A stretch of 64,000 bases of DNA from Candidatus Aenigmatarchaeota archaeon (GCA_039000725.1 JAWBNO010000001.1:130446-194445), one strand, 5' to 3'. Shown: positions 2,072 through 64,000, numbered from the stretch's first letter. A program made the numbers and translations. Notes: generated by a model not told the origin, from the letters alone.

Positions 2072-2075
2072 ATAT

Positions 2076-2789: not shown

Positions 2790-2792
2790 ATC

Positions 2793-4022: not shown

Positions 4023-4051
4023 ATTTTTTATTTAAGTCTTAGAATAATATT

Positions 4052-16517: not shown

Positions 16518-16613
16518 GCTGGGGTCGCCTAATCAGGTAGGGCGCCGGCCTCGAGTACAAAAGATAGCCGGTGGGGCTTTGGCCCTGTGTGGGTTCAAAT
16601 CCCACCCCCAGCG
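16518..16613 (+). tRNA. tRNA-Ser (anticodon CGA) with a short intron at the canonical 37/38 position
   Basis: Hand-folded. Acceptor gctgggg/ccccagc with G73. Anticodon stem ccggc/gccgg with loop ct-CGA-g...a. About 10 nt (16556-16565) interrupt the loop. Long variable arm tggggctttggccctgt. T arm gtggg-ttcaaat-cccac. GC-rich island. Confidence 0.85.
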
Positions 16614-23510: not shown

Positions 23511-23583
23511 CGCCCCCGCCGGGATTCGAACCCGGGTCTCAGGCGTGACAGGCCTGCATCCTAGGCCACTAGACGACGAGGGC
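23511..23583 (-). tRNA. tRNA-Asp (anticodon GUC)
   Basis: The reverse complement gccctcgtcgtctagtggcctaggatgcaggcctGTCacgcctgagacccgggttcgaatcccggcgggggcg folds as a cloverleaf. Anticodon loop ct-GTC-ac. GC-rich island. Confidence 0.9.
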
Positions 23584-23639: not shown

Positions 23640-23761
23640 GGATTGGCGGCGACGTGGATTTCCCGCTCCATAACGGAGCAGTACTTTCCACACCTCCGGG
23701 AGGCTTAACTTCCGGGTTCGGAACGAGACCGGGTGTTTCCCTCCCGATCTGGCCGCCAACC
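23640..23761 (-). rRNA. rrf: 5S ribosomal RNA
   Basis: The reverse complement contains the universal 5S core acacccggtctcgttccgaacccggaagttaagcc. The terminal helix ttggcggc/gccgccaa closes the molecule. About 122 nt. Confidence 0.9.
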
Positions 23762-30091: not shown

Positions 30092-30204
30092 TAGCCCCGG
30101 GCGGATTCGAACCGCCGTCCCCGGGTTTCTTTCTCATCTAAATATCAAAGCTTTAGTCCTGCGAGACCAAAGCCCGGTATCCTTGGCCGCTAGACGACGG
30201 GGCT
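30092..30204 (-). tRNA. tRNA-Gln (anticodon UUG) with a ~40-nt intron
   Basis: The reverse complement starts agccccgtcgtctagcggccaaggat. A1-U72 is typical of archaeal tRNA-Gln. Anticodon stem ccggg/cccgg with loop ct-TTG-g...a. Intron about 30127-30166. T arm ggcgg-ttcgaat-ccgcc. Confidence 0.85.
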
Positions 30205-38620: not shown

Positions 38621-38732
38621 GCTGGGGTCGCCTAACCAGGTAGGGCGCCGGTCTTGAGTTATCAAGATCTGATGAAAATGAAGAAAACCGGTGGGCTTAA
38701 CGCCCGTGTGGGTTCAAATCCCACCCCCAGCG
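38621..38732 (+). tRNA. tRNA-Ser (anticodon UGA) with a 27-nt intron
   Basis: Its exons are nearly identical to tRNA-Ser(CGA) at 16518. Anticodon stem ccggt/accgg with loop ct-TGA-g...a. Intron 38659-38685. Long variable arm tgggcttaacgcccgt. T arm gtggg-ttcaaat-cccac. G73. Confidence 0.85.
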
Positions 38733-45526: not shown

Positions 45527-45744
45527 TTTTTCACCTCCATTAAAAGCAAGTATGGTATTTGTTTATAAGAAACAAAAAACAAAACAAAAAGGACTATAAC
45601 AAAAAGAATAATAGTTGATATTAAATCAAAAGGAGAAACCTTTTGATTTGAGTATGCATAATACATTTGAAGAGACACTAATAAGAAAATTACTAAAACG
45701 AACCATGCGACCCACTTTGGTAAAATAATTTTTTTTAACTTCAT
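45523..45744 (-). CDS. Small two-span membrane protein
   Basis: 73 aa with two hydrophobic helices. 4-nt overlaps on both sides suggest translational coupling within the GT operon. Confidence 0.45.
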   Translation of the reverse strand: MKLKKIILPKWVAWFVLVIFLLVSLQMYYAYSNQKVSPFDLISTIILFVIVLFVLFFVSYKQIPYLLLMEVKK

Positions 45745-46910
45745 ACAATCTCACCATATACTTGCTCAGTTTTCTTAGCGATTTCATCCCAATTGAAAAC
45801 TGTTTCAGCGGCGTATCTTCCCTTTTCACCCATCCATCTTGCATGTTCCAAATTTCTTAAAATTTCTTTAATACCCCACGCTATTGAATTTGGTGCTTGA
45901 TAAACTTTATATCCTGTAACATTATGCCACATTAATTCGCCTGCACCTGTACCATGAGTAGCTATAACTGGTTTTTTACAAGCCCAAGCCTCTAAAACTA
46001 CAATTCCGAATGGCTCATTTCTACTTGGAACAACAACAACTTCACTAGCTTTAATAATCTTAGTTTTCCAATCATCCGAAACATAGCCAGTAAATCTAAC
46101 TGCGTGCCATAAATTCAATTCAGAAACTCTTTTTTCTAGTTGGTGTTTCATATATCCATCACCAATAAATACAAACTTAGCATTTGGAAAATCTTTCAAA
46201 ACATCTGGTATAGCTTCAACTAACAAATCTGGACCCTTTTGATATGTCATTCTACCAACAAAAACTATAACCGGATCATAAACACCAAAGCCAAAATGTT
46301 TCTTTACATCATTCCATGCATCTATTTCTCCATCAAATTTGTGTGCCCAAATTCCGTTTGGAACAATTCTAATTTTCCAATCCGGAACCCTATATAACCT
46401 CATAACTTCGTCTTTCATAACATTAGAGCAAACTATAAGTCTGTCTGCTATATAAGTTCCGTACCATTCTAAATTTGCTATATCTTGAGCGCAGCCACCA
46501 TTAAAATGATTACCGTCTCTCCCATATTGTGTTGAATGAAGAGTAAAAACTATCTTTCTTCCTCTAGCTTTTTTTATTTCATCTAATGCCATAACTACAT
46601 GCCAATCATGACCATGAACTATATCAAATTTTCCTATATAGTTTTCTGTTTCAAAAAAATAGTAAGCCATTGATTTACACATATTATTACTCATTTCATA
46701 AATAAAATTTCTATCAAAATTGAATGGACACCTATGATAATGTACACCATCAATATTTTGGTATAAACTTTGATTGTTTCCTATTCTCGTAAAAACATGA
46801 ACTTCGTGCCCTAATCTTTGTAATGCTGCAGCTAATTCTGTAACATGAACTGCTAAACCACCGCAAGCGATAGAATGTAAAGATTCCCAACTAAAAAAAG
46901 CGATTCTCAT
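45741..46910 (-). CDS. Glycogen-synthase-like GT-B glycosyltransferase
   Basis: 389 aa. Contains MRIAFFSWESLHSIACGGLAVHVTELAAAL and NEPFGIVVLEAWACKKPVIATHGTGAGE. Confidence 0.75.
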   Translation of the reverse strand: MRIAFFSWESLHSIACGGLAVHVTELAAALQRLGHEVHVFTRIGNNQSLYQNIDGVHYHRCPFNFDRNFIYEMSNNMCKSMAYYFFETENYIGKFDIVHGHDWHVVMALDEIKKARGRKIVFTLHSTQYGRDGNHFNGGCAQDIANLEWYGTYIADRLIVCSNVMKDEVMRLYRVPDWKIRIVPNGIWAHKFDGEIDAWNDVKKHFGFGVYDPVIVFVGRMTYQKGPDLLVEAIPDVLKDFPNAKFVFIGDGYMKHQLEKRVSELNLWHAVRFTGYVSDDWKTKIIKASEVVVVPSRNEPFGIVVLEAWACKKPVIATHGTGAGELMWHNVTGYKVYQAPNSIAWGIKEILRNLEHARWMGEKGRYAAETVFNWDEIAKKTEQVYGEIV

Positions 46911-46953: not shown

Positions 46954-48153
46954 TTAAAGATTTCTTATCTTTTCTTTAATTTTACTTAATATTTTCTTTC
47001 CCTGTTCAAACCAATAATCAGTACCCCAATAAACATAGCAACTAGTTTCGGCTATAAGCAAAAGTTTTAATAGTTCTGCATCGTTTATTTCGTTAACAAT
47101 CTTGCTTATTTCTTCTATTTCTCTAGCAATATTGGCTCTTTTTTCTCCCCATATCCATCTTTCATGACCAACTACCCAAGAAGCTCCAATTAACTTTAAT
47201 TCTACTCTTTCCATTTTTTCATCCTTGTAATATTTTTCCAAAAAATCTGAAACTAGAATAGAAGAAACTTTACTATCTTTAAATTTAGAAAAGAAATCAG
47301 TATAAGTTTCTGGAAAAAATTGATTCATCATCACATTACCGTTTTCTCCATCACTTGCTGTTATTATCAGAGCTGGCTTGTTACAACCTAAAATTTCCTT
47401 AGCCTTAAGGCATTGAGTATAAATATAATTAGCAGTAACTCCAGCTTGTTGATCTAAAAAATAGTATGGAGCAGAAAAAAATACTATAATTTCTTGATCA
47501 TTTACTGAAACCTTATAAGGCTTTGAAAAATATCTTATTCTTTCTTCAAAACTCAGTTTTTCGTAATTAGCTAAAGAAAAGATTGGTAATATTACCCACT
47601 CATAACCAAAATCTCTAAGAATTTTTATTAAATTTCCTAGCTTATCTCCATAAGATGGAACCCCCATTTCTGGTAACCAAAATCCTTTAATGTTCTTAAG
47701 TTGGTTTTTTCCAAATATGGATGAAAAAACGTTTTGCCACTCTCTAATTTGCCATTTCCAATCTCTTTCTGGAGTAACAGGAAAGTAACAATGAGAATAT
47801 GCTGTACCTGCAAATTCTATACTTTTAGGAAAATTTTTTATAACCCTTCTATAAGCTTCAATTATGTTACCTATTTTTTCTCCTTGAACCTCTATATTTT
47901 CTAAAAAATCTGAAAGTCTTTCTAAAGATTCTAAAAGAATTCCTGAAAAATCTAACATAATTTTTGGCTTATAATTGTTAAGTTTTTCAATGTAAGTTGC
48001 AGGATTTTTGTAAGCTCTAGCAATCAACTTTCCATCCCAACTTTCTATTGAATCTTTTGATAAGATCATTTTTTTCAAATTGCTCTCAAGAATATTATCA
48101 ACCCAAACTAAAGGTTGATGCATATGTAACCAAGGGATCCAGAAAGCTTCCAT
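46954..48153 (-). CDS. GH57-family glycoside hydrolase (second, divergent copy)
   Basis: 399 aa. GH57 blocks HMHQP, AGTAYSH, WLPEMG (nucleophile Glu region) and ASDGENG (acid/base Asp region). Confidence 0.7.
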   Translation of the reverse strand: MEAFWIPWLHMHQPLVWVDNILESNLKKMILSKDSIESWDGKLIARAYKNPATYIEKLNNYKPKIMLDFSGILLESLERLSDFLENIEVQGEKIGNIIEAYRRVIKNFPKSIEFAGTAYSHCYFPVTPERDWKWQIREWQNVFSSIFGKNQLKNIKGFWLPEMGVPSYGDKLGNLIKILRDFGYEWVILPIFSLANYEKLSFEERIRYFSKPYKVSVNDQEIIVFFSAPYYFLDQQAGVTANYIYTQCLKAKEILGCNKPALIITASDGENGNVMMNQFFPETYTDFFSKFKDSKVSSILVSDFLEKYYKDEKMERVELKLIGASWVVGHERWIWGEKRANIAREIEEISKIVNEINDAELLKLLLIAETSCYVYWGTDYWFEQGKKILSKIKEKIRNL

Positions 48154-48195
48154 AAGAAAAATTGAAAAATAAAAATTAATTTAACCTTAATAAAA

Positions 48196-48267
48196 TGGAC
48201 CGGCCGGGATTCGAACCCGGAGCCTCCGCCTTGCGAAGGCGGCGTCCTACCATTAGACCACCGGCCC
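48196..48267 (-). tRNA. tRNA-Ala (anticodon CGC)
   Basis: The reverse complement is gggccggtggtctaatggtaggacgccgccttCGCaaggcggaggctccgggttcgaatcccggccggtcca. The G3:U70 identity pair is present. No intron. Confidence 0.9.
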
Positions 48268-48295
48268 ATTTTATTTTTTATAAACAAAGATTATA

Positions 48296-49021
48296 ATGAA
48301 ACTAAATTGTATTAAAATAAGGGGGAATTCTAACCTAAATTTAGATTTTGAAGAAGAACCGTTTTCTTGGAAAAGAAATATGAGTGAATTGATAAAAGAT
48401 AAAGTCATTTTAGATTTAAAAAATGGGAAAAGGGCCTTAGAATTTTTTGGTGATAGAATTGTTTATATTGTTTATAATTTATGGAAAGGCATAAGAAAAT
48501 ATAGGATTATTAAAGAAAAAATAGGATTAAATTTCGATTTAACATTACTCAAAAAAGGCACATTTTCCTTAGAAAAAAATGGAGAACTATTTTTAACATA
48601 TGGACATAAACATGAAGAAGAAAGAGGGGAGTTTTACAAAGTTATTAAAAATGAATGTATAATTCTTCTTTCCGACATAGAAAAAAAGAAATCATATTTT
48701 GTTGAACTAAAAGAAGGTGATTCTATTTTAATACACCCTAGATATGTTCATAGATTAATTTCAAAAAATGTTGATTGTTTAGTTTTGGGTATTGTTCCAG
48801 AAGATGCTGGTCATAACTATGAAATTGTTAAAAATAGAGGATTTCCTTTTCATTTTTTCCTAAAAGATAGTTGGATAAAAATAGTTGAAAATAAAAAATA
48901 TAAAAATCATAAGATATTCAAAGCTTTTCCGAAAAATAGAGAAATACCAATAGAAAAATTAAAAAAAGTTTTGTACAATCCTAAAAATTATAAGAATCTA
49001 TACAGCTTAAATTTCCTCTAA
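48296..49021 (+). CDS. pgiA: Cupin-type glucose-6-phosphate isomerase (cPGI)-like protein
   Basis: 241 aa. TYGHKHEEERGEFY fits the cPGI signature TxGHxHx(6-11)ExY. The second cupin block IHPRYVHRLISKN parallels PPyWAHRtvN. Confidence 0.7.
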   Translation: MKLNCIKIRGNSNLNLDFEEEPFSWKRNMSELIKDKVILDLKNGKRALEFFGDRIVYIVYNLWKGIRKYRIIKEKIGLNFDLTLLKKGTFSLEKNGELFLTYGHKHEEERGEFYKVIKNECIILLSDIEKKKSYFVELKEGDSILIHPRYVHRLISKNVDCLVLGIVPEDAGHNYEIVKNRGFPFHFFLKDSWIKIVENKKYKNHKIFKAFPKNREIPIEKLKKVLYNPKNYKNLYSLNFL

Positions 49022-50993: not shown

Positions 50994-51335
50994 ATGTTAA
51001 AACAAGTTATAATAGTAAGAAAGGATTTAGATTGGAGCAAAGGTAAGCTAGCTGCACATGTAGCTCACGCTAGTTTAGAAGCAGCCCTAAGTGTTGATAG
51101 AGAATTATTAGAAAAATGGAGAAGGTCTGGTGCAAAAAAAGTTGTTCTTAAAGTTAAAGATCTAAAGGAGTTGAAAAAAATAGAAAAAGAGTTGAAAAAA
51201 GAAAAAATAAGTTATGTAAAAATTTCTGATGCTGGACTAACTCAATTAAGAAAAGGAACTATAACTTGTATAGGAATTGGACCTATAGAAGAAAAAAGAA
51301 TTGATAAAATAACTGGAAATTTAAGTCTTTTTTGA
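50994..51335 (+). CDS. pth2: Peptidyl-tRNA hydrolase, archaeal type (Pth2)
   Basis: 113 aa. Contains QVIIVRKDLDWSKGKLAAHVAHAS and DAGLTQL. Confidence 0.9.
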   Translation: MLKQVIIVRKDLDWSKGKLAAHVAHASLEAALSVDRELLEKWRRSGAKKVVLKVKDLKELKKIEKELKKEKISYVKISDAGLTQLRKGTITCIGIGPIEEKRIDKITGNLSLF

Positions 51336-51800
51336 AAGTTTATTTTTTAATAATATGTTTAATGCGCTTTCTATTATCCTTACTTGATCCTCTCTAGGAA
51401 TGTATAGGTATGTAGTATATTCGAAAACCTCTCTTACAACGTTATAAACATATAATATTGCGTCTGAATAACCTACTAGATAACAGTAAATAGCTAGCTG
51501 ATATTTTCCTTTTCTTTTTTGAAAATCTAGATTTTCTTTAAACCTATAAGTCTTAAGCTCTTCCACGACCTTTTTTTCTCTATCTACCCTGTCAGGAGAG
51601 CCATAAATTCTAATTGTATAACCATCATACATGATAACATTCTCATAAATTTTTTCATTTTCAAATCCCAAAATTTTATGATAATATTTTCCGTTTTCTG
51701 AGCTTTTGTGTCTCTTGTACTTTTCTTCTAACTTTAATTCATGTTCAATTAAAGAATTTACCAATCTTGTTACTGAGTAGGAAAAATCAACACTACCCAT
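51321..51800 (-). CDS. PD-(D/E)xK nuclease-superfamily protein, Cas4/RecB-like core without Fe-S cysteines
   Basis: 159 aa. IYGSPDRVD...VVEELKT provides D...ExK, and QLAIYCYLVGY provides a QxxxY motif. Confidence 0.5.
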   Translation of the reverse strand: MGSVDFSYSVTRLVNSLIEHELKLEEKYKRHKSSENGKYYHKILGFENEKIYENVIMYDGYTIRIYGSPDRVDREKKVVEELKTYRFKENLDFQKRKGKYQLAIYCYLVGYSDAILYVYNVVREVFEYTTYLYIPREDQVRIIESALNILLKNKLSKKT

Positions 51801-51832
51801 TTTTTATTAAGTTGGAGAAAAACTTAAATATT

Positions 51833-52423
51833 TTATACCCTAATTCCTAAAACTGTTATAATAAATCTTATTGTTGCTAAATCTAATTCTTTTAAACTTT
51901 TTCCAGAAATAAATACAGTGTAATTTTCTATTCTTACTAAAGTCTCATTTGCAATTACTGGTGGTATTATATATATTACTGGATTCGTATAATTTCCTTT
52001 TAACTCTAAAATATCTGAAACTTCTTTTCCCTTTATTTCAACTGATAAACCATTTAAAGTGTAAAAACTTGCTAATTTAAACGTTATTTCATAAGCTTCT
52101 ACTCCAATATAATGAGTTTCATTTGTTGTGTTCAATACGGCTATTGTTATTCTATTTAATTCCTGATTCCAAAAAATTTCTCTAATAATTTCCTCGTTTG
52201 GATAAACACCTATATTTTTCGCTAATCTTAAATCTTCTCTAAATTCCATTGGAACGTTAAAATAAACTATCTTTTTAACTGGTTGACTATATTTATACCA
52301 GTTATAAATTTGAGGATAATAGAAGTAAATTGCAAAAATTATAAATAACGTAGTAGCCAATATTGTTACTCTTTTAATGCTAATATTTATTTTAATATCA
52401 TCATTTTTCTTTTTTTCAACCAT
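51833..52423 (-). CDS. N-terminally anchored extracytoplasmic protein, sequon-rich
   Basis: 196 aa with one N-terminal span. Five N-x-S/T sequons (NTT, NET, NYT, NET, NYT) lie in the exposed domain. Confidence 0.5.
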   Translation of the reverse strand: MVEKKKNDDIKINISIKRVTILATTLFIIFAIYFYYPQIYNWYKYSQPVKKIVYFNVPMEFREDLRLAKNIGVYPNEEIIREIFWNQELNRITIAVLNTTNETHYIGVEAYEITFKLASFYTLNGLSVEIKGKEVSDILELKGNYTNPVIYIIPPVIANETLVRIENYTVFISGKSLKELDLATIRFIITVLGIRV

Positions 52424-55691: not shown

Positions 55692-55790
55692 AATTTTTTA
55701 ATAATCCTTATGACTAACTAAAATTCTTTTAATCTCTTTATTATTAACAATATTATAATCACAAGCTTTTTTAAAAACCTTGCAGTTATA

Positions 55791-56051
55791 TTACCTTTCT
55801 ATTAACCATTTCCACAACGGAATAAACTTAATTTTTTTATTTTCAATTTTCAATTCATCTTCATAATCCCAAGTTATTATTAACAAGTTTTTACATTTTA
55901 ATTGTTCACTAGCTTTAATTAATGCTCTTATTTCTCTTTTCTCTATTTCATCTTTACTAGAAGAATAAGTTACTTGAATTAATTGCTTTATTTCTAAACC
56001 TTCCTTTATAACGAAATCAACTTCATTTTGTTGATAATCTTTCCAATAGTA
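55791..56051 (-). repeat. Shared 3' module, copy 1 (long form, from YYWKDYQQNEVDF to the stop)
   Basis: Alignable by eye at nucleotide level with the other copies. Anchors: aaccatttcc, catcttcataatcccaagt, cactagctttt, acttgaattaattg, tttccaatagtaaat. Confidence 0.85.
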
Positions 56052-57065
56052 AATTTCAGCTAAGGGATTTTCGCTAATCTTTCTTTTAAGTTGCAAAAAT
56101 ACACAATTCTCCATTAACCTTCCAATATTTTCTGAAAATTTCGAAAATCTTTTTATGAAAAAATTATCAATAAACATAACTTTTCTTGGTGCTTTTAAAG
56201 AATTCTTTACTTTAGGTGTCAAAATCTCTAAAAATTCTACAAATAAAGAATTTTCTAAGTAGTAAAGATAGTTAGCAACTGTCTCTTTTCCTATTTTATG
56301 TCCAATAGATTTTAAAGTATCAAAAATTTTTGTTATGGTTATGTAAGTTGAGTTAAGTAAAAGTCTTATAAGATCCCTCATTAATTCTTTATTTCTTATA
56401 CCATAACGTTCAAAAATATCGCGAATAAGAAAAGTTTTGAAATATTCCTCAATAAGTAGATATTTTTTCGCTTCATCTGAGAGAACAATCTCAGGTAATC
56501 CACCAAAATTTATATACTCTCTTAATAGGTTTAATTTAAGAGCATTCGTTAATTCCTCTATATTTTCTCCTTTAAATCTTAAGAACTCTAAAAATGATAG
56601 TGGATAAACCTCAAAAGTTATACATCTTCCTCTCAATTCAGTTGGTATTTCTTTACTTGAAAGTTTTGATGATGAGCCAGATAAAATTATTTGATAATTA
56701 AAACTGTCTAACATTCTTCTTACCCATTTGCTCCAGTTAGGAATGTTTTGTATTTCATCTAACAAAAAAACAAGCTTTTTCTTTCCATAAATTTCTTTTA
56801 TAATCTCAGAAAAACAAGTCAAAACTTCTGTTTTCTTTGGCAATCTTTCATCTTCAAAATCTATATAAATTGTATTTTCTTTTCCTATTTTTCTTGCTGT
56901 ATTCAAAAGCAAAAATGTTTTTCCAACTCTTCTGAAACCAACTATTGGTATAGCCTTAACAATTTTCCAATCTATTAACTTACTAGGATCTTTATCTCTC
57001 TCAATTATCTTCGGTAACTCTCTTTCTTCCCATTCTTTCACAAGTTGTTTTAAAATTGTCTTCAT
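55791..57065 (-). CDS. COG1373-type AAA+ ATPase (AAA_14 - wHTH - DUF4143-like), array paralog 1
   Basis: 424 aa. Walker A GFRRVGKT, Walker B FLLDEIQ, sensor SGSSS, wHTH-like segment ITKIFDTLKSIGHKIGKETVANYLYYLENSLFV. Carries the shared C-terminal module YYWKDYQQNEVDFVIK...IPLWKWLIER. Confidence 0.85.
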   Translation of the reverse strand: MKTILKQLVKEWEERELPKIIERDKDPSKLIDWKIVKAIPIVGFRRVGKTFLLLNTARKIGKENTIYIDFEDERLPKKTEVLTCFSEIIKEIYGKKKLVFLLDEIQNIPNWSKWVRRMLDSFNYQIILSGSSSKLSSKEIPTELRGRCITFEVYPLSFLEFLRFKGENIEELTNALKLNLLREYINFGGLPEIVLSDEAKKYLLIEEYFKTFLIRDIFERYGIRNKELMRDLIRLLLNSTYITITKIFDTLKSIGHKIGKETVANYLYYLENSLFVEFLEILTPKVKNSLKAPRKVMFIDNFFIKRFSKFSENIGRLMENCVFLQLKRKISENPLAEIYYWKDYQQNEVDFVIKEGLEIKQLIQVTYSSSKDEIEKREIRALIKASEQLKCKNLLIITWDYEDELKIENKKIKFIPLWKWLIER

Positions 57066-57081
57066 AAAAAATTAGTGTAGA

Positions 57082-57101
57082 ACAATATTTATAAATATTG
57101 T
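57082..57101. promoter_or_regulatory. Perfect 20-bp palindrome acaatattta/taaatattgt upstream of array paralog 1 (TATA-like core)
   Basis: Read directly. The centre lies about 27 nt upstream of the ATG at 57065. The core tttataaa resembles an archaeal TATA box. Confidence 0.55.
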
Positions 57102-57136
57102 ACTATAATACTAGATTTATAGAACAAAATAACAAA

Positions 57137-57379
57137 CTATTGCCTTTCTATTAACCATTTCCATAATGGAAGGCATTTAATTTTTTTGTTCTGAACATTT
57201 AACTCATCTTCATAATCCCAAGTTATTATTAACAAGTTTTTGCATTTTAATTGCTCAGAAGCTTTTAACAAAGCTTTTATTTCCCTTTTCTCAATCTCAT
57301 CTTTACTTGAAGCGTAAGTTGCTTGAATTAGTTGTTTTATTTCTAAACCATTTTTAATTAAAAAATCAACTTCGTAATC
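57137..57379 (-). repeat. Shared 3' module, copy 2 (short form, from DYEVDF)
   Basis: Same anchors as the other copies. Diverges from the long form upstream of the EVDF codons. Confidence 0.85.
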
Positions 57380-58417
57380 ATTTGATTTAAAATAAAAAAT
57401 TTCATTAACTTTTCCTTCAAGTTTTTTCTTTAAAAGCTGTATAGCAACTAAATTTTCAATTTTTTTACCAACATCTTTAGAAAATCTTGGCTCAATTTGA
57501 AAATATATATTATCAACCAAATAACTTTTTACTGGATATTTTGCTCTTTCTCTATATTTAAAAGAAAATCTTTTTATAGGGAAAACAAAAAGAGCCTCTT
57601 CCACATATTTTAAATAATTAGCTAGAGTTTTTTTACTAATTTTTAAACCTATTGATTTTAATTCATTTTCAATTTTTGATATTGAAACATAAGAGGAGGA
57701 ATTAGATATGCAATATCTAACAAAATAATCCATAAGTGCGACATTTTTAATTTTAAATCTTTCTATTATATCTTTGAAAAAAATTGCATCGAAATAAGTT
57801 TTTGCAATATCTAGCTTTTTATTTTTTTCTTCCTGCAAAATAATTTCCGGATATCCGCCAAAATCTATATATTCTTTCAATAATCCTAAAATTTTTCCAA
57901 TTTTTGCTTCAGAAATTTCTTTTTCTATTTTAAATTCTTTAAAATCAAGAAATTCTTTAAAGCTAAATGGAAATAAAACGAAAGAAATACATCTTCCCCT
58001 CAGCTCTGTTGAAATTTCCCTACTTAAAAGTTTTGAAGAAGAGCCAGAAATTATTATTTTATATTTTTGAAAATTATGCAATGTTCTAACAAAAGAAGAC
58101 CAATTATCGAGCTCTTGAATTTCATCGAAAAAAAGAAATATGTTATCTTTAAATAGGTAATTTATTTCTTTCAAAAATTCAGAAATACTAACTTTTTTTA
58201 TTCTGGGGTCTGTAAAATCTAAGTAAACAATATTTTCCTTAGTGAAATTCTTTTCAAAAAGCTCTTTAATAAGCTGAAACATAAAATAAGTTTTTCCAGC
58301 TCTTCTTGGTCCTATAATTGAAACTATATGATTGTTCATCCAAATTTTTAGCTCTCTTTTAATTATTCTTCTTGGCAATTCTTTCTCTTTCCATTCTAAT
58401 AAGACTTCTCTTAACAT
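57137..58417 (-). CDS. COG1373-type AAA+ ATPase, array paralog 2
   Basis: 426 aa. Walker A GPRRAGKT, Walker B FFDEIQ, sensor SGSSS. The shared C-terminal module begins at SNDYEVDFLIK. Confidence 0.85.
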   Translation of the reverse strand: MLREVLLEWKEKELPRRIIKRELKIWMNNHIVSIIGPRRAGKTYFMFQLIKELFEKNFTKENIVYLDFTDPRIKKVSISEFLKEINYLFKDNIFLFFDEIQELDNWSSFVRTLHNFQKYKIIISGSSSKLLSREISTELRGRCISFVLFPFSFKEFLDFKEFKIEKEISEAKIGKILGLLKEYIDFGGYPEIILQEEKNKKLDIAKTYFDAIFFKDIIERFKIKNVALMDYFVRYCISNSSSYVSISKIENELKSIGLKISKKTLANYLKYVEEALFVFPIKRFSFKYRERAKYPVKSYLVDNIYFQIEPRFSKDVGKKIENLVAIQLLKKKLEGKVNEIFYFKSNDYEVDFLIKNGLEIKQLIQATYASSKDEIEKREIKALLKASEQLKCKNLLIITWDYEDELNVQNKKIKCLPLWKWLIERQ

Positions 58418-58428
58418 AAAAGAAATAT

Positions 58429-58459
58429 AGGAAACAAAAAATATATATTTTTGTTTCCT
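58429..58459. promoter_or_regulatory. Inverted repeat aggaaacaaaaa-N7-tttttgtttcct upstream of array paralog 2
   Basis: 12-bp arms with the spacer atatata. The centre lies about 27 nt upstream of the ATG at 58417. Confidence 0.55.
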
Positions 58460-58469
58460 CTAGAAACTA

Positions 58470-58742
58470 CTATAAACTTAGAGTATTTCCTAGCAACCAT
58501 TTCCATAAAGGAATGCATTTAATACTTTTATTTTCAATTTTCAATTCATCTTCATAATCCCAAGTTATTATAAGCAAGTTTTTACACTTTAGTCCTTCAC
58601 TAGCTTTTAGTAAAGCTTTAATTTCTCTTTTTTCAATTTCATCTTTGCTAGATGCATAAGTTACTTGAATTAATTGTTTAACATCTAAATTTTCCTTTAT
58701 AACAAAATCAACTTCATTTTGTTGATAATCTTTCCAATAGTA
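58470..58742 (-). repeat. Shared 3' module, copy 3 (long form plus 6-codon tail)
   Basis: Same anchors. The extreme 3' segment is nearly identical to copy 4. Confidence 0.85.
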
Positions 58743-59759
58743 AATTTCCCAATCACTAAACCAATAACTTTTTCTTCTTAACAACTCTATTGCAACCAAA
58801 TTTTCCATTAGCCTACCTGTATTCTCACTAGTTAAAAATCCGGCAACACCAATTAACCCATTATCAATACAATAAACTTTTTTTGGTGCAACAAATTTTT
58901 GTTTTAATTTAAAACTAAATCTCTCAAGCTTTATTATCAAATAAGCTTCCTCCAATGCACTAACCCAATTAGAAATAGTAAACAAATGTTTTACTGTAGA
59001 AATCTCTTTTAAGGATGAATAAGTGAACTCTTTTGAAAAATTACTAACCAAAAATCTTGCTATTTTTCTCAACTCTTCTTCTCTTTTAATTTTTTCTCTT
59101 TTAACAACATCTTTTTCTATAATATCTTCATAAATTGTTTTTAGTATTTTTTTCCCAAATTTCGGAAATTCTGGAAACCCGCTGTTAAATAAATAATCCT
59201 TAAGATGGTTAAAAATTTGTGCCCTTTCTAGTGTTGTATATGCCTCTAAGTTTAAGTTATTATACACCAAAAACTCTCTAAAGCTAAATGGAAATAAAGT
59301 AAAATCAATATGTCTTCCTGTTAAATGAGTTGCTAATTCGCCAGATAAAAGTTTTGAATTGCTCCCAGTAATTATAACTTTTTTTGTTCTCCTCAATCTA
59401 TTAGCAAAAAGTTCCCAACCTTCAATATTTTGAATCTCATCTAAAACTATGTTCTCTATATTTCCATAAAGCTCATAAAATACTTGTAAAACTTTGTTTA
59501 AATCATCAGCTTTTAATCCCTTCAGTCTCTCATCATCAAAATTTATATAACCAAATTTTTGATCTTTTAAAACTTGCCAAGAGAGAACAGACTTGCCACA
59601 TCTCCTAACACCCAATATTGCTAGAATATTTGGATATTTCAAAAACTTTTGTAATTCTCTTGTTAATTCTCTTTCTATTATTTTTTCTTTCTCAAATATT
59701 TTTTCTATATCTTTTTCTTGCTCTAAAACAACTTCTTTTATTATTTCTTTTGAAAACAT
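58470..59759 (-). CDS. COG1373-type AAA+ ATPase, array paralog 3
   Basis: 429 aa. Walker A GVRRCGKS, Walker B VLDEIQ, sensor TGSNS. Shared C-terminal module with a 6-residue tail extension (GNTLSL). Confidence 0.85.
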   Translation of the reverse strand: MFSKEIIKEVVLEQEKDIEKIFEKEKIIERELTRELQKFLKYPNILAILGVRRCGKSVLSWQVLKDQKFGYINFDDERLKGLKADDLNKVLQVFYELYGNIENIVLDEIQNIEGWELFANRLRRTKKVIITGSNSKLLSGELATHLTGRHIDFTLFPFSFREFLVYNNLNLEAYTTLERAQIFNHLKDYLFNSGFPEFPKFGKKILKTIYEDIIEKDVVKREKIKREEELRKIARFLVSNFSKEFTYSSLKEISTVKHLFTISNWVSALEEAYLIIKLERFSFKLKQKFVAPKKVYCIDNGLIGVAGFLTSENTGRLMENLVAIELLRRKSYWFSDWEIYYWKDYQQNEVDFVIKENLDVKQLIQVTYASSKDEIEKREIKALLKASEGLKCKNLLIITWDYEDELKIENKSIKCIPLWKWLLGNTLSL

Positions 59760-59771
59760 ATATAATTATAT

Positions 59772-59798
59772 TAGAAAGCTTTTTTAAAAAGCTTTCTA
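59772..59798. promoter_or_regulatory. Inverted repeat tagaaagcttttt-t-aaaaagctttcta upstream of array paralog 3
   Basis: 13-bp arms with a 1-nt spacer. The centre lies about 26 nt upstream of the ATG at 59759. Confidence 0.55.
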
Positions 59799-59813
59799 TT
59801 TATATTATTAAAC

Positions 59814-60050
59814 CTAAAACAATAACCATTTCCATAAAGGAATGCATTTAATACTTTTATTTTCAATTTCCAATTCATCTTCATAATCCCAAGTAATTAT
59901 AAGCAAGTTTTTGCACTTTAGTTCTTCACTAGCTTTTAACAAAGCTTTAATTTCCCTTTTTTCAATTTCATCTTTACTAGATGCATAAGTAACTTGAATT
60001 AATTGCTTTATTTCTAAACCTTCTTTTATAACAAAATCAACTTCATAATC
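59814..60050 (-). repeat. Shared 3' module, copy 4 (short form)
   Basis: Same anchors. By hand count, about 9 differences from copy 3 over the first ~185 nt after the aaccatttcc anchor. Confidence 0.85.
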
Positions 60051-61082
60051 ATTGCTGACTAGATAGTAGAATTCAAGCAATGGATTTTTATTCTGTTTTC
60101 TCTTTAATTCTAAAAACACACAATTTTCCATTAACTTTCCAAAATCTTGTGAAAACTTTACAACCTTTGTTAAACCGTTGTCTACAACATAAATTTTCTT
60201 TGGCCAAGATTCTCTAATATGCACCTTTACAGAATACCTATTAAGAAAGAAAAACACTAAGGTATCATTTAATTTATCTAAATAATCATAAACTGTATCT
60301 TTTGAAACTTTTAAATTAGAAGATTTAGTTTTATCGTAAATAGACTTAATTGATACTTCTTTTGAAAAATTTTGCAGAACAAAATTAAGTAAAAATTTTG
60401 AAAAACCTATGTTTCTTATTTCATGTCTCTCTATAAAATCTCTAAACAAAATTAAATCGTAATATTGCTTAATTATATTAATCTTAATTTGGTCATTCAA
60501 TATTACCTCGGGGAAACCACCAAATTCAATATATTCTCTTAAATTTCTTTTTATCTCAACCTCCTTTTCTTTAGACAAAAATTTTTCAATAGAAATTTTT
60601 TTAGCATCCAAAAACTCTCTGAAGCTAAACGGAAATAATACATAACTTAAAGTTCTACCTCTAAGTTTTGTTGAAATCTCTTTACTTAAAAGTTTGGAAG
60701 AAGAACCAGTAATAACTATTTTATAAAGTTTAAGATCATGAATTTCTCTTATTATAATCTCCCAGTTTTTAACATTATGTATTTCATCTAAAAGTAAATA
60801 CTGTGGTTTTATTCCATAAATTTCTTCAAACAATCTTATCATTTCTCTTATATCTCTAAAATTCGCTCCAATTAAACGAGAATCTTCAAAATTTAAATAT
60901 AAGCTATTTGGTTTTAAGTTTTTTATTTGAAAAAGATAATAGGTCTTACCGGCTCTTCTAGGACCTATAATTGAAATTATAAAATTTGTATCCAATGGTA
61001 TTTCTAGTTCTCTTTTTATTATTTGTGGTTGAAATTCTTCATATTCCTTAAAAAAATCTATTAAAGCTTCCCTATTTATCAT
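59814..61082 (-). CDS. COG1373-type AAA+ ATPase, array paralog 4
   Basis: 422 aa. Walker A GPRRAGKT, Walker B LLDEIH, sensor TGSSS. The shared C-terminal module begins at SNDYEVDFVIK. Confidence 0.85.
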   Translation of the reverse strand: MINREALIDFFKEYEEFQPQIIKRELEIPLDTNFIISIIGPRRAGKTYYLFQIKNLKPNSLYLNFEDSRLIGANFRDIREMIRLFEEIYGIKPQYLLLDEIHNVKNWEIIIREIHDLKLYKIVITGSSSKLLSKEISTKLRGRTLSYVLFPFSFREFLDAKKISIEKFLSKEKEVEIKRNLREYIEFGGFPEVILNDQIKINIIKQYYDLILFRDFIERHEIRNIGFSKFLLNFVLQNFSKEVSIKSIYDKTKSSNLKVSKDTVYDYLDKLNDTLVFFFLNRYSVKVHIRESWPKKIYVVDNGLTKVVKFSQDFGKLMENCVFLELKRKQNKNPLLEFYYLVSNDYEVDFVIKEGLEIKQLIQVTYASSKDEIEKREIKALLKASEELKCKNLLIITWDYEDELEIENKSIKCIPLWKWLLF

Positions 61083-61098
61083 AATATAGTATATTAGG

Positions 61099-61142
61099 AA
61101 GGAAAATATATTTAAAAATTTTCCTTATAGCAAGGAAAATAT
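61099..61142. promoter_or_regulatory. aaggaaaat motif in triplicate upstream of array paralog 4: inverted pair 61099-61107 / 61118-61126 plus direct copy 61132-61140
   Basis: 9-bp arms with the spacer atatttaaaa. A third direct copy (aaggaaaatat) lies 25 nt further upstream. Confidence 0.5.
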
Positions 61143-61159
61143 TATTCCAGTTAAGATAA

Positions 61160-61417
61160 CTACTCTAATAACCATTTCCACAACGGAATAAACTTAATTT
61201 TTTTATTTTCAATTTCCAATTCATCTTCATAATCCCAAGTTATTATTAACAAATTTTTACATTTTAATAGCTCACTAGCTTTTATTAACGCTTTTATTTC
61301 CCTTTTTTCAATCTCATCTTTGCTAGAAGCATAAGTAACTTGAATTAATTGTTTAACATCTAAACCTTCTTTTATAACAAAATCAACTTCATTTTGTTGA
61401 TAATCTTTCCAATAGTA
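61160..61417 (-). repeat. Shared 3' module, copy 5 (long form)
   Basis: Same anchors. The extreme 3' segment ccacaacggaataaacttaatttttttattttcaatt is shared with copy 1. Confidence 0.85.
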
Positions 61418-62416
61418 AATCTCTTGAAGAGGGGTAGAATTTGTTTTTCTTAATAATTCAAGAAAGACTATGTTTTCCATCAACTTTCCGACATCTTTAG
61501 AAAATCTTACTAAAACTGAAATTCCTGTATCTACAACATATACTTTTTTTGGCCAGCTTCTTCTAATATAAATGCTTTTTGAAAATCTGTCAACAAAAAA
61601 GACATTTAATGTATCTTGCAACTTATCAATATAATCATAAAGAGTTTTATTAGTAAAGTTAACCCTTTCTCTTATAGTCTTTCCTATTTTATTTATACTA
61701 ATTTCTTTTCCAAAATTTTGAAAAACAAATTCAAATAAAAATCTTCCCAACTCAAAACTCTTTATTTTATGTCTTTCAACAAAATCTGAAAGAAAAATTT
61801 CATCAAAATATCTTTTTAATAATTTTTCTTTTTCATCACTAAAAACAACTTCTGGATATCCACCCTCTTTTAAGTATCTATCCAAGAATTTCAACAAACT
61901 TCCCTTTTCTTCAAAAGTATAGTTTTGCTTAATTTCAAAATTATTGGCAACCAAAAACTCTCTAAAACTAAATGGTAATAATAAATAGTTTATTGTCCTT
62001 CCTCTTAATTGAGTCGCTATTTCTTTTGGCAATAATTTAGAAGAAGATCCAGTAATGAAAACCTTATACTCTCTATCTATTAAAGTTCTCACTAAACTTT
62101 CCCAACCTTCAACAATTTGAATTTCATCGAGAAGAATAGTTTTTGGAGAAAAACCTTTAACCTCAACAAAAATTTTTAGTATTTCAAAAAAATCCTCTGC
62201 TCTAACATTTCTAAAAGCTAGATCTTCAAAATTTATGTAAAGGGAATCTTTGTATAAAGTGTTTAAAAGATAAAGCATGTACCATGTTTTTCCGGCCCTT
62301 CTCGGTCCTAAAATAGAAATTGCCTTATCTTTAACATCTTTTATTTCCAATTCTCTTTTAATTCCTTTAAACTTCTTTTCTCTTATGAAATAATCTTTTA
62401 TCAGTTCTTTATTCAT
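61160..62416 (-). CDS. COG1373-type AAA+ ATPase, array paralog 5
   Basis: 418 aa. Walker A GPRRAGKT, Walker B LLDEIQ, sensor TGSSS. The shared C-terminal module begins at YYWKDYQQNEVDF. Confidence 0.85.
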   Translation of the reverse strand: MNKELIKDYFIREKKFKGIKRELEIKDVKDKAISILGPRRAGKTWYMLYLLNTLYKDSLYINFEDLAFRNVRAEDFFEILKIFVEVKGFSPKTILLDEIQIVEGWESLVRTLIDREYKVFITGSSSKLLPKEIATQLRGRTINYLLLPFSFREFLVANNFEIKQNYTFEEKGSLLKFLDRYLKEGGYPEVVFSDEKEKLLKRYFDEIFLSDFVERHKIKSFELGRFLFEFVFQNFGKEISINKIGKTIRERVNFTNKTLYDYIDKLQDTLNVFFVDRFSKSIYIRRSWPKKVYVVDTGISVLVRFSKDVGKLMENIVFLELLRKTNSTPLQEIYYWKDYQQNEVDFVIKEGLDVKQLIQVTYASSKDEIEKREIKALIKASELLKCKNLLIITWDYEDELEIENKKIKFIPLWKWLLE

Positions 62417-62420
62417 AATA

Positions 62421-62446
62421 ATATAAATTCTATTAAAAATTTATAT
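62421..62446. promoter_or_regulatory. Weak A/T-only inverted repeat atataaat-N10-atttatat upstream of array paralog 5
   Basis: 8-bp arms made only of A/T, so this could be chance in this genome. Listed for completeness. Confidence 0.25.
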
Positions 62447-62476
62447 CCTTGAAATACAAATTTTCATAACAAAATA

Positions 62477-62737
62477 TTACCTTTCTAACAACCATTTCCA
62501 TAATGGTATGCATTTAATTGTTTTTTCATTAACTTTTAACTCATCTTCATAGTCCCATGTAATTATTTGCAAGTTTTTACATTTTAATAGCTCGCTAGCT
62601 TTTATTAACGCTTTTATTTCTCTTTTATCAATTTCATCCTTGCTTGAAACATAAGTTACTTGGATTAGTTGTTTAATATTTAATCCTTGTTTTATTACAA
62701 AATCGACCTCATTTTGCTGATAATCTTTCCAATAATA
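62477..62737 (-). repeat. Shared 3' module, copy 6 (long form, most diverged)
   Basis: Same anchors but with more substitutions (for example catagtcccatgtaattatttgc). Confidence 0.8.
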
Positions 62738-63736
62738 AACTTCTTTATAACCCTTTCTCAATAACTCTATAGCAACCAAGTTTTCAATTAATCTACCAAT
62801 ATTTTCAGAAAATTTAAAACTGGTAAAATTCGGGAAAGATAAATCCATTGAATAAACTTTCTTCTTAGATTTAATTTGATTTTTAATACTAAAAGAAAAT
62901 GCATCTAAATGAAAAATTAAATAAGCTTCTTTGAGATATTCGAAATAATTTTGAACAGTATGGACGCTTCTAAAATTAAGAATTTCATTTATTTTATTAA
63001 AACTTTGTAGAGTTGAAATATTAGAAATTAAATATCTTGCCAGCTCATAAATTTTTGATGAAAATCTTAAATTATATCTCTTAACGATGTCTTTAAATAT
63101 AATGCTATCGAAAAGCATTCTAACATAATTCTCCGGCCTATACTTTTCTATTACAACTTCTGGAAGCCCACCAATTTTTAAATATTCATTCAATAAATTT
63201 AGCAATTTTCCTCTTAATTCTTTTATTTCTAATTCTTCCTTTCTTATCTTAAAATCCTTTGCTTTTAAAAACTCTCTAAAGCTGAATGGAAAATTTTCTA
63301 TTTCAATATATCTTCCTGTTAAATGAGTTGCTAGTTCTTTGCTAAGTAATTTTGCATTAGAGCCAGTAATTATAATATTATAACCGCTTCTTTGCAATCT
63401 GTTTACAAAAAGTTCCCATTTTTCTAAATTTTGGATCTCATCAAAAAACAAAAAATTAACTTTTCCATATATTTCATGCAAATTTTTTAATATTTCATCA
63501 TAATCTTTAACCTCTACTAATCTCTCGTCATCAAAATTTACATAACCAAAGTTAAATTTTTTTATTAAATGAATTCCTAAAAATGATTTCCCACTTCTTC
63601 TTAATCCTATAATAACCTTTATTAATTTTGTATTGAGATATGGTATTATTTTCTCTATGTTTTCTCTTTCAATAAATTTTCCTTTAACAATTTCTTCAAC
63701 TTCAATTTTCTGTCTTAACAATACTTCTTTTATCAT
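62477..63736 (-). CDS. COG1373-type AAA+ ATPase, array paralog 6
   Basis: Walker A GLRRSGKS, Walker B FFDEIQ, sensor TGSNA, shared C-terminal module. Start placed at the ATG (MIKEVLL); the track's GTG start at 63751 adds 5 codons. Confidence 0.8.
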   Translation of the reverse strand: MIKEVLLRQKIEVEEIVKGKFIERENIEKIIPYLNTKLIKVIIGLRRSGKSFLGIHLIKKFNFGYVNFDDERLVEVKDYDEILKNLHEIYGKVNFLFFDEIQNLEKWELFVNRLQRSGYNIIITGSNAKLLSKELATHLTGRYIEIENFPFSFREFLKAKDFKIRKEELEIKELRGKLLNLLNEYLKIGGLPEVVIEKYRPENYVRMLFDSIIFKDIVKRYNLRFSSKIYELARYLISNISTLQSFNKINEILNFRSVHTVQNYFEYLKEAYLIFHLDAFSFSIKNQIKSKKKVYSMDLSFPNFTSFKFSENIGRLIENLVAIELLRKGYKEVYYWKDYQQNEVDFVIKQGLNIKQLIQVTYVSSKDEIDKREIKALIKASELLKCKNLQIITWDYEDELKVNEKTIKCIPLWKWLLER

Positions 63737-63743
63737 AAAATTA

Positions 63744-63775
63744 TACTGCACAAAAATTTATAAATTTATGCAGTA
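63744..63775. promoter_or_regulatory. Inverted repeat tactgca-N18-tgcagta upstream of array paralog 6
   Basis: 7-bp G/C-containing arms around the partly palindromic core caaaaatttataaattta. The centre lies about 23 nt upstream of the ATG at 63736. Confidence 0.5.
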
Positions 63776-63793
63776 CAACTTTTTAACTGAAAT

Positions 63794-63925
63794 TTAAAAT
63801 TTTAACAACCATTTCCATAAAGGGATACATTTAATCGTTTTATTATTAACTTTCAATTCATCTTCATAATCCCAAGTTATTACAAGCAAGTTTTTGCATT
63901 TTAGCTCTTCACTAGCTTTTAGTAA
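63794..63925 (-). repeat. Shared 3' module, copy 7 (solo, truncated)
   Basis: Matches the distal half of the module only. Confidence 0.75.
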
Positions 63926-63937
63926 ATAATTACCTTT
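63794..63937 (-). pseudogene. Truncated 3' remnant of a seventh COG1373-type ATPase paralog (C-terminal ~43 codons only)
   Basis: Hand translation gives (TGA)KGNYLLKASEELKCKNLLVITWDYEDELKVNNKTIKCIPLWKWLLKF*. Homology to the shared module runs about 63794-63925, then stops abruptly. There is no start codon and no ATPase part. Confidence 0.75.
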
Positions 63938-64000
63938 TCAACTTTAGTTTCAAAAAATTCTTTATGTGTTATTTCTCTAAAGACAGAATGTTCCAAATCA
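63919..64000 (-). CDS. 3' end of an unidentified gene running off the window (partial)
   Basis: The minus-strand frame is open from the window edge and reads ...DLEHSVFREITHKEFFETKVEKVIIY* with a TAA at 63919-63921. That stop lies inside the last few nt of the remnant block. Too short to identify. Confidence 0.35.
   Translation of the reverse strand, partial: DLEHSVFREITHKEFFETKVEKVIIY

Follow-up and report, generated by a model that had tools for sequence, protein, structure and literature searches.

A tandem array of candidate-defence PDC-S01 genes with an apparently recombining 3' half-domain in a Candidatus Aenigmatarchaeota genome

The gene array described here lies in a stretch of 64,000 nt from a Candidatus Aenigmatarchaeota (DPANN) genome (GCA_039000725.1, JAWBNO010000001.1:130446-194445). 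The whole of this stretch is referred to as the window, and coordinates are window positions unless another locus is named. Open reading frame (ORF) calling in 55791-63751 returned six complete genes, g1 to g6, all on the minus strand and arranged head to tail with spacers of 52-77 bp. A search of the 64 kb with a hidden Markov model (HMM) of the family found exactly these six copies and a C-terminal fragment of 43 residues, with no other match. Together with a remnant at each end, the locus reads as a tandem array of six apparently functional paralogues and two decayed stubs of the AAA_14-DUF4143 family.

The six genes differ in their Walker A motifs. GPRRAGKT is shared by g2 (57137-58417, 426 aa), g4 (59814-61082, 422 aa) and g5 (61160-62416, 418 aa), and an RR[CS]GKS motif accompanied by ELATHLTGR is found in g3 (58470-59759, 429 aa; VRRCGKS) and g6 (62477-63751, 424 aa; LRRSGKS). 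The Walker A of g1 (55791-57065, 424 aa) is GFRRVGKT. Across the six copies, Walker B is DEIQ or DEIH (DEIH in g4), and a sensor-type motif reads SGSSS, TGSNS or TGSNA. As called mechanically, the g6 ORF begins at a GTG at 63751, but an orthologue 99% identical to it in a related genome (L002, described below) is called from an ATG five codons downstream (MIKEVLL), and the true start of g6 is probably the corresponding ATG at 63736. With that start, a TTTATAAA element would stand about 27 nt upstream of the gene.

Both stubs are on the minus strand. The orphan 3' stub (63796-63938) consists of the last ~47 codons of a g3-type copy. The family HMM matched it at 63797-63937 (HMM positions 380-422, E 4e-21), and its similarity to the tail of the L002 gene L2_2 starts abruptly at 63938. 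Several in-frame stop codons lie directly upstream, and the fragment is therefore a pseudogene stub and not the end of a longer gene. The second remnant (55705-55748), recognised by alignment with a near-identical strain (L085, below), is about 45 nt long; it is what decay has left of the 5' end of a seventh copy, now deleted, and its start codon is missing. An earlier reading of the window from the sequence alone (the sequence-only reading) had described six full-length paralogues and one truncated one on the same strand at these positions, with the same Walker A subtypes and the same Walker B and sensor motifs, and ORF calls, the family HMM and motif inspection all agree with it. Its count of seven members holds for the six genes and the 3' stub; the 5' stub had been missed.

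The array is also visible at the nucleotide level as a direct repeat of 260 nt in six copies and one of 137 nt in seven copies, spaced at 1317-1349 bp, a repeat structure far beyond chance. The 260-nt repeat (family D1) occupies the 3' end of each gene on the minus strand, at 55798-56057 in g1, 57147-57406 in g2, 58489-58748 in g3, 59818-60077 in g4, 61164-61423 in g5 and 62484-62743 in g6. Taking the g1 module as reference, the six copies are 76-92% identical to it, the g6 module being the most divergent. Between g4 and g3, nucleotide identity is 87-98% over the last ~70 codons versus approximately 50% upstream. Base composition does not set the array apart; GC content is 23-31% across the whole window.

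Profile searches place the six genes as ordinary members of the known candidate-defence family PDC-S01 (COG1373, AAA_14-DUF4143). AAA_14 was found in all six proteins at 114-124 bits (E ~1e-33 to 1e-36; Pfam gathering cutoff 27 bits) and DUF4143 at 60-94 bits (E 1e-16 to 1e-26; cutoff 28.1 bits), and the PADLOC model for PDC-S01, PDLC04787, matched each protein end to end (E 1e-92 to 1e-113, approximately positions 8-408 of 412). For g1, the respective E values were 2.3e-34, 3e-17 and 2.2e-99. PDC-S01 has been described as an Archaea-enriched ATPase fused to a PD-(D/E)XK-superfamily domain and is reported to rank fourth by frequency among prokaryotic defence (candidate) types (PMC12988326). 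The sequence-only reading had regarded the family as having no assigned function, which is right in so far as it is still experimentally unvalidated, but the family is already catalogued. No NCBIfam model matched the array proteins and a PDB sequence search returned no relative of them. In a test against STAND NTPase (Avs/NLR-like) profiles, the only match was that of g2 to nSTAND3, whose 18.5 bits fall short of the cutoff (27.2 bits). In the Pfam search, g6 also matched Mrr_cat above its cutoff. The closest homologues all come from Candidatus Aenigmatarchaeota. For the g3 and g4 types, the two types searched, homologues 54-66% identical overall occur in other phyla, bacteria included, and the family has spread horizontally across phyla. 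Additionally, 72 viral or proviral IMG/VR contigs (L087-L158) encode family relatives at 26-37% identity.

With 58 sequences as input, AlphaFold2 gave a confident model of g4, at a pLDDT (predicted local distance difference test) of 91.5 and a pTM (predicted template modelling score) of 0.91. It consists, in order, of an N-terminal helix, an AAA+ alpha/beta core (~35-165), a helical lid (~170-240), a winged-helix-like unit (~245-300) and a C-terminal alpha-beta-beta-beta-alpha-beta domain (~302-422; H314-332, E336-342, E347-354, E357-364, H375-388, E393-397). The best Foldseek matches in the PDB were the archaeal AAA+ protein SSO1545 (2fna) and Orc1/Cdc6, followed by RuvB, RFC, MuB and TnsC, with Avs4 only at rank 20. 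The similarity to Orc1/Cdc6 (Foldseek probability 1.0, template modelling (TM) score 0.26-0.29, identity 13-15%) is one of architectural resemblance and not of membership. A domain-only model of the C-terminal region, built on six sequences, was poor (pLDDT 61), and its best fold matches, at E 0.015 or weaker, were the nuclease domains of Can2, tRNA-splicing endonuclease, McrC and Hjc. Because DUF4143 is listed in the PD-(D/E)XK superfamily (PMC3424549), and because of the g6 Mrr_cat match, the topology and these weak fold matches, the C-terminal domain is assigned to the PD-(D/E)XK type. Each protein is thus predicted to combine two parts, an AAA+ ATPase resembling Orc1/Cdc6, complete with helical lid and winged helix, and, fused to it, a nuclease domain like those of the PD-(D/E)XK superfamily. 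The order of AAA+, winged-helix-like and DUF4143 parts proposed in the sequence-only reading was recovered by the profile search that it had suggested and by the g4 model.

The putative nuclease site was compared across 107 sequences comprising the six window copies and relatives. E319, E347-x-D349 and R376-E377 were invariant or nearly so. At position 363, 89 sequences have Q, 14 have N and 4 have E, and 100 have T, C or S at position 365. Their third motif, Q-V-[T/C/S] (Q363-V-T365), departs from the canonical D...(D/E)-x-K arrangement, giving a variant site that may or may not be active; I-E-V-K was seen in only a few distant members. On the ATPase side, G-x-RR-x-GK[TS] and DE were invariant in the six copies and 107 relatives. 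All six window copies retain Walker A, Walker B, an RGR motif, E319, E347-x-D349, Q363 and R376-E377. Since every conserved ATPase and nuclease-site residue is kept in the six copies, all of them look functional.

Two conservation regimes were found within each gene. Over the first ~345 residues (the N part: ATPase, lid, winged helix and first half of the nuclease domain), the copies are 34-47% identical to one another (mean 39%), and over the last ~77 residues (the C part: second half of the PD-(D/E)XK-like domain), they are 80-93% identical (mean 86%). By segment, mean pairwise identity is 35% in the N-terminal helix, 44% in the AAA+ core, 33% in the lid, 31% in the winged helix and 48% in the first half of the nuclease domain, rising to 86% in the last 76 residues. 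The boundary does not coincide with a domain border but lies at the E-V-D-F strand, within the nuclease fold. The sequence-only reading had placed variable N-terminal parts on a common C-terminal module; this arrangement was observed, but the uniform module is limited to the last ~77 codons and does not take in the whole of DUF4143.

As a baseline, g3-type and g4-type subfamily members from unrelated sources were compared. Identity between them averaged 35% over the N part and 59% over the C part, where the 99th percentile was 76%; only 0.17% of these pairs reached the minimum seen in the window. The C part is the best-conserved region family-wide, to a lesser degree than in the array (67-69% versus 59-60% in the N part within subfamilies). 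No excess of C-part identity was found in small family clusters of other taxa (L014, L026, L029, L031 and L048), where it was 24-55%. Orthologous copies gave ratios of nonsynonymous to synonymous divergence (dN/dS) of 0.06-0.23, and each copy is therefore under purifying selection. The N parts are old, distinct subfamilies under purifying selection, with orthologues elsewhere. Rapid diversifying selection on the N parts was rejected because of these ratios. The polymorphic, diversified N-terminal parts envisaged in the sequence-only reading were accordingly not borne out, and variation between genomes comes about through gain, loss and exchange of whole units.

The relatives used for this comparison carry arrays of their own, with 8 copies in L001 (GCA_038998885.1), at least 7 in L002 and L003 and at least 3 in L004, and all comparison genomes identified are metagenome-assembled genomes (MAGs). 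Their genes are denoted Lx_n for gene n of locus x. By their N parts, g1 groups with L4_3 (88% identical), g3 with L1_2 and L2_2 (89%), g4 with L4_2 (92%) and with L1_4 and L2_5 (83%), g5 with L1_6 (88%) and L2_7 (87%), and g6 with L2_3 (99%). For g2, there is no orthologue in L001, L002 or L004, where the best N-part identity among the copies is at most 44%. The C parts do not follow these groups. In the alignment with the relatives, C parts are 79-92% identical between paralogues of the window versus 74-84% between orthologues in different genomes, and g6 and L2_3, nearly identical in the N part, are only 78% identical in the C part. Conversely, L4_1 and L4_2 are 97% identical in the C part and 37% in the N part at the protein level, and the nucleotide identity of the 3' block in L004 is 96.5% versus 54.8% upstream. 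The pattern has arisen again independently in L034, another Aenigmarchaeota lineage with a different module sequence. Its paralogous proteins are 93-95% identical in the C part and 29-33% in the N part; at the nucleotide level, identity is 93-96% over the last 231 nt and 51-54% upstream.

Synonymous divergence (dS) gave the same picture. Between g6 and L2_3, dS is 0.07 in the N part and 1.60 in the C part; between L1_2 and L2_2, the values are 0.03 and 0.38. For L4_1 and L4_2, the order is reversed, with 1.28 in the N part and 0.11 in the C part. By sliding-window identity, two independent comparisons, g6 against L2_3 and L4_1 against L4_2, both break at codons ~347-349. Amongst the window copies, a GENECONV-style permutation analysis found shared tracts between g3 and g5 (global P 0.007), g1 and g3 (0.029) and g1 and g5 (0.05). 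The comparison shows concerted evolution by both of its usual signs, namely C parts that are closer between paralogues than between orthologues, and supported tracts and breakpoints.

A uniform C-terminus produced by purifying selection alone, without recombination, could explain the low C-part dN/dS (~0.1) and the many synonymous differences between the window copies. It fails on the opposed dS contrasts of g6/L2_3 and L4_1/L4_2, and again on the excess of paralogue over orthologue identity, the significant shared tracts and the L034 tails, and we regard it as scarcely credible. Conservation of the 3' block as a DNA or RNA element (a repeat, an antisense gene or an RNA) was also considered and rejected, because the block stops exactly at the stop codons, the spacers are unrelated, no opposite-strand ORF of at least 80 aa is present, and the many synonymous differences between the copies, at a dN/dS of ~0.1, indicate that the protein is what selection acts on. 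Two processes together keep the C parts alike, namely strong purifying selection and recurrent gene conversion and unequal crossing-over between copies. The uniformity of the C-terminal module noticed in the sequence-only reading is therefore real, and its main cause, recombination, had gone unremarked.

Mosaics and differences in gene order could also arise if repeats were collapsed or mis-joined during assembly, a concern for comparison genomes that are all MAGs with junctions in repeated sequence. Such an artefact is nevertheless very improbable. No exact match between copies is longer than 50 nt, which is below read length and typical final k-mers. L002 and L003, which come from different samples, have the same array, g3-g2-g1 of the window is 97.7% identical to its L085 counterpart, and the 5' stub at 55705-55748 is decayed and not a clean join. 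The shortness of the exact matches and the agreement of independent assemblies thus make misassembly unlikely.

Recombination has added, removed and moved whole units. L085 (GCA_044343155.1) is a near-identical syntenic strain in which most flanking proteins are 94-98% identical to those of the window, and its a0, a1 and a2 are 98% identical to g3, g2 and g1, respectively. Window positions 59298-55705 align with L085 1-3594 and positions 55704-46825 with L085 5950-14835. The intervening block of 2,355 bp, absent from the window, sits in L085 between the g1 counterpart and a GT22 gene, and it holds a further family copy of 428 aa (a3) and a gene for a 358-aa protein. The window keeps ~45 nt of the decayed 5' end of a3, the ATG having been lost. 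The 358-aa protein (L085 4870-5946) has an N-terminal hydrophobic segment and no Pfam match, and its gene was lost from the window together with the seventh copy. Stable retention of the same six syntenic genes in related genomes, which would have spoken against a special system according to the sequence-only reading, was therefore not observed even in this near-identical strain. The cross-genome comparison that it had called for likewise showed that content varies, with 3 to 8 copies in more distant relatives, in other orders and in other genomic neighbourhoods. The window order is g6-g5-g4-g3-g2-g1 and that of L002 is A-g3-g6-X-g4-Y-g5. No flank synteny was found between the window and L001-L004, the only match being a GDE_C protein at 23% identity.

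Two further events could be reconstructed. L001 lacks the g6-type unit, which in L002 lies between the g3-type and 435-aa-type genes, and L1_2 is identical to L2_2 up to the last ~25 codons and from there on identical to the tail of L2_3. A gene with the head of L2_2 and the tail of L2_3, in a locus lacking the g6-type unit, is therefore attributed to unequal crossover between two 3' modules. In the window, the upstream stub (a g3-type tail) is followed by g6 in the same order as in L002, and the two are near-identical from the last ~50-70 nt of the g3-type tail, through the spacer, to codon ~349 of g6. Other orthologues between these lineages have a dS of 0.66-0.99, and one unit bounded by two modules was thus exchanged recently between the lineages.

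This exchange of a unit whose dS to the L002 lineage is about one tenth of that of the other units, the relatives in other phyla and on viral contigs, and the different neighbourhoods of the array in different genomes would also suit cargo of mobile or selfish elements, the genes being integrated elements or of addiction type and the array a graveyard or hotspot of insertions. Within the window, however, no integrase, transposase, terminal repeat or tRNA target was found in or next to the array. The head-to-tail units with their short spacers, and junctions inside the coding 3' module, point to homologous and not site-specific recombination, and we consider an origin as mobile cargo quite improbable. 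A site-specific shufflon or diversity-generating system is likewise not indicated, as all copies are on one strand and no such enzymes are near. Specifically, no recombinase or reverse-transcriptase genes were found in the 10 kb downstream, and the only ORFs of at least 80 aa in 55791-63751 are those of the family.

The frequency of such arrays was estimated from approximately 80 loci of GTDB species representatives, a sample biased towards g4-like sequences. A single family copy was found within ~10 kb either side in 62 of the 79 non-redundant loci, and a few loci carry 2-3. Among the sampled loci, at least six intact same-strand copies occur only in this Aenigmatarchaeota group; a locus from an uncultured archaeon (L079) has six family matches, but these are mixed in strand and mostly partial. 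A survey counted 9,986 PDC-S01 genes in 7,747 archaeal genomes, or ~1.3 per genome (PMC12988326), and six to eight in a small DPANN genome therefore represent a marked excess. No mention of arrays or modular evolution for PDC-S01 was found in the papers that could be searched. New here is the organisation: the units of a large array have a recombining 3' half-domain in common, and gene conversion, unequal crossing-over, stubs left by deletions and lateral unit exchange are documented in it.

The events described above can be joined in a mechanism. The 3' block, as the only long DNA similarity in the array, serves as a homology arm for recombination. Recombination in it deletes units, inserts units and replaces tails, and it also carries complete units, each made up of an N part with the spacer and tail end that precede it, from one genome to another. 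As to function, each copy would be an ATP-dependent switch, in which the variable ATPase, lid and winged-helix part recognises a distinct foreign nucleic-acid or protein cue and the nuclease domain then cuts DNA. The array could in this way widen the range of invaders recognised, in an organism of a group, the DPANN archaea, in which CRISPR and restriction systems are reported to be scarce.

An ATP-driven sensor-nuclease role in defence is plausible, and we infer it from four lines of information. PDC-S01 was nominated through its embedding in restriction-modification, BREX and DISARM systems (10.1101/2024.01.29.577857), and the family is enriched in Archaea, with multiple PDCs enriched in DPANN (PMC12988326). 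HEPN and nucleotidyltransferase (MNT-like) pairs lie within 1-3.5 kb upstream of the arrays in L001 (145-447 and 1828-2920), L002 (1146-1697) and L003 (1124-1675), with ThiI between in L002 and L003, and such a pair is the architecture described for the candidate system PDC-M05 (PMC12988326). Finally, array content turns over at the strain level. Altogether, we regard a recombining PDC-S01 paralogue array with modular evolution and a defence function as moderately probable. The immune-receptor-like character that the sequence-only reading had suggested is supported in part; all copies are full-length PDC-S01 members, the support is indirect, and the N parts are not diversifying rapidly.

Several observations weigh against this assignment. 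No member of PDC-S01 has been shown to defend, and the family lacks a test in the founding paper (10.1101/2024.01.29.577857); one PDC-S01 representative gave no protection against T4, T5 and T7 in E. coli B (10.1101/2024.09.26.614923). On its visible flank, the array adjoins genes of glycan and glycogen metabolism (glycosyltransferase and glycogen genes) and no defence island, the other flank lying past the window end. In this clade, E-x-D...Q-V-[T/C/S] replaces the canonical nuclease motif, and nuclease activity may therefore not be assured. A recent or selected module is spoken against by the substantial synonymous divergence of the C modules in the window (dS 0.44-2.8, dN/dS ~0.1), from which it follows that conversion in this genome is old or episodic and that much of the identity is due to selection on the protein. 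Homogenisation may lack a function of its own and simply occur where homology pre-exists. Assembly chimeras in the MAGs, against which the short exact matches argue, keep a small residual probability.

Some of these points would be accommodated if the array were a neutral by-product, that is, an accumulation of acquired or duplicated COG1373 genes that need not be immune (they could act in DNA transactions or be selfish), with conversion happening just where the sequence is conserved and having no adaptive significance. The C part is already the most conserved region between subfamilies across the family, and recombination would seed there by default; defence neighbours are not visible in the window, and PDC-S01 is unvalidated, with its one heterologous test negative. 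Against a by-product, all six copies keep every catalytic residue under purifying selection, and eight kilobases are a costly load for a reduced DPANN genome. Several Aenigmatarchaeota lineages have large arrays of this modular pattern, which is absent from the small clusters of other taxa, and the family was nominated through its embedding in defence systems. A neutral origin is a serious possibility, although we hold it to be doubtful, and the defence array remains our preferred interpretation. A more ambitious form of it, which we think unlikely, is a combinatorial immune locus in which the 77-residue half-domain is kept uniform for mixed oligomers or a common effector interface and also serves as the homology arm for swapping sensor units. 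This would amount to recombination-based updating of specificity in archaea largely without CRISPR.

PDC-S01 is reported to be amongst the commonest candidate defence families of prokaryotes, especially in archaea, and the locus offers a natural dissection of the protein. In its behaviour, the variable part (ATPase, lid and winged helix) is comparable to a specificity module, and the second half of the nuclease fold, which the copies share, to a module for common output or for interaction. The locus also documents a clean prokaryotic case in which concerted evolution is limited to one end of a gene. Strains of this DPANN archaeon, whose genome is reduced, gain, lose and laterally exchange units by crossing over in the conserved block. 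Should no function emerge, the locus would still advise caution, as counts of 'single-gene systems' can conceal recombining arrays.

The spacers contain further features. Hairpins of -10 to -13.5 kcal/mol follow directly after the stop codon in four of the six spacers within the array and in the spacer after g1. They include a perfect 12-bp palindrome in the g4/g3 spacer (59772-59798, RNA fold -13.1 kcal/mol) and, on the minus strand of the g3/g2 spacer (58429-58459, -13.3 kcal/mol), a 12-bp stem followed by a T-rich tail. The palindromes at 59772-59798, after g4, and at 55755-55785, after g1, are built on one core, TTTTTAAAAAAGCTT. These hairpins may be terminators or insulators between units. 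A sigma-70 promoter scan found 51 promoters versus 50.4 expected from shuffling, the sigma-70 model being uninformative for an archaeon. TATA-like elements in the spacers were considered as a sign of separate transcription and dropped, as they are at the chance expectation for 25% GC.

Outside the array, a GT4 glycosyltransferase gene (45741-46910) also passes the Pfam model 'GT4-conflict' (48 bits, cutoff 26); it stands in a glycogen-type cluster (starch-synthase domain, GH57, GDE_C and GPI), and a metabolic role is therefore more likely. In the same region, the GH57 and GPI genes (46954-49021) have a dS of 0.57-0.79 relative to L085 and the adjacent GDE_C gene one of 0.08, a contrast that points to mosaic strain-level recombination outside the array too. 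Two minus-strand ORFs at 51321-52423 (159 and 196 aa, no Pfam match) are 70-76% identical to their L085 counterparts, with a dS of 0.43-0.63 and a dN/dS of ~0.33, and most other flanking genes have a dS of 0.03-0.15; these two ORFs appear to mark a local hypervariable spot. The window also contains three intron-containing tRNA genes of 96-113 nt (16518-16613, 30092-30204 and 38621-38732), whose introns identify the host as archaeal, and a 5S rRNA gene (23641-23760) adjoining a tRNA at 23511-23583. In another Aenigmatarchaeota genome (L086), a T2SSE-type secretion or pilus ATPase (1350-4370) is interrupted by an intein with a LAGLIDADG endonuclease, and two family copies lie ~4 kb downstream of it, beside a seryl-tRNA synthetase gene.

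Compared with known systems, the array proteins stand closest to PADLOC PDC-S01, with which they share the end-to-end PDLC04787 match, both Pfam domains and the description as an ATPase with a PD-(D/E)XK domain (PMC12988326). PDC-S01 is defined as a single-gene system, whereas six tandem copies (up to 8 in relatives) with a recombining 3' module are present here. With Orc1/Cdc6 and Arch_ATPase proteins (2fna SSO1545, 1fnn and 2v1u), they have in common an AAA+ core, lid and winged helix in the same order at a Foldseek probability of 1.0. They differ in the low TM score (0.26-0.43) and identity (13-17%), in the unusual Walker A GxRRxGK[TS], and in the nuclease domain, which the known proteins lack. 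The PD-(D/E)XK effectors McrC of McrBC, Can2, Cap4, Mrr and Hjc resemble the C-terminal domain in topology, in the acidic residue of helix 1 and in the E-x-D at strand 2. Fold matches of the isolated domain to such effectors are its top ones, though weak, and g6 matches Mrr_cat. The putative third motif of the array proteins is Q-V-[T/C/S] and not (D/E)-x-K, and R-E in the next helix is co-conserved with it.

At the level of the locus, recombining cassette loci such as Rhs/CDI orphan toxin arrays, hsdS shufflons of type I restriction-modification systems and plant NLR clusters offer a further comparison. In contrast to these, the conserved block of the array is at the 3' end, each unit is a complete, separately startable gene and not a silent cassette, invertase or recombinase genes and inverted repeats are absent from the array, and the variable parts are old and not hypervariable. 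In such loci, a conserved block in neighbouring genes is the substrate for exchanging a variable specificity part, stubs or orphans flank the locus, and content varies between close strains, and in these respects the array of g1 to g6 resembles them.

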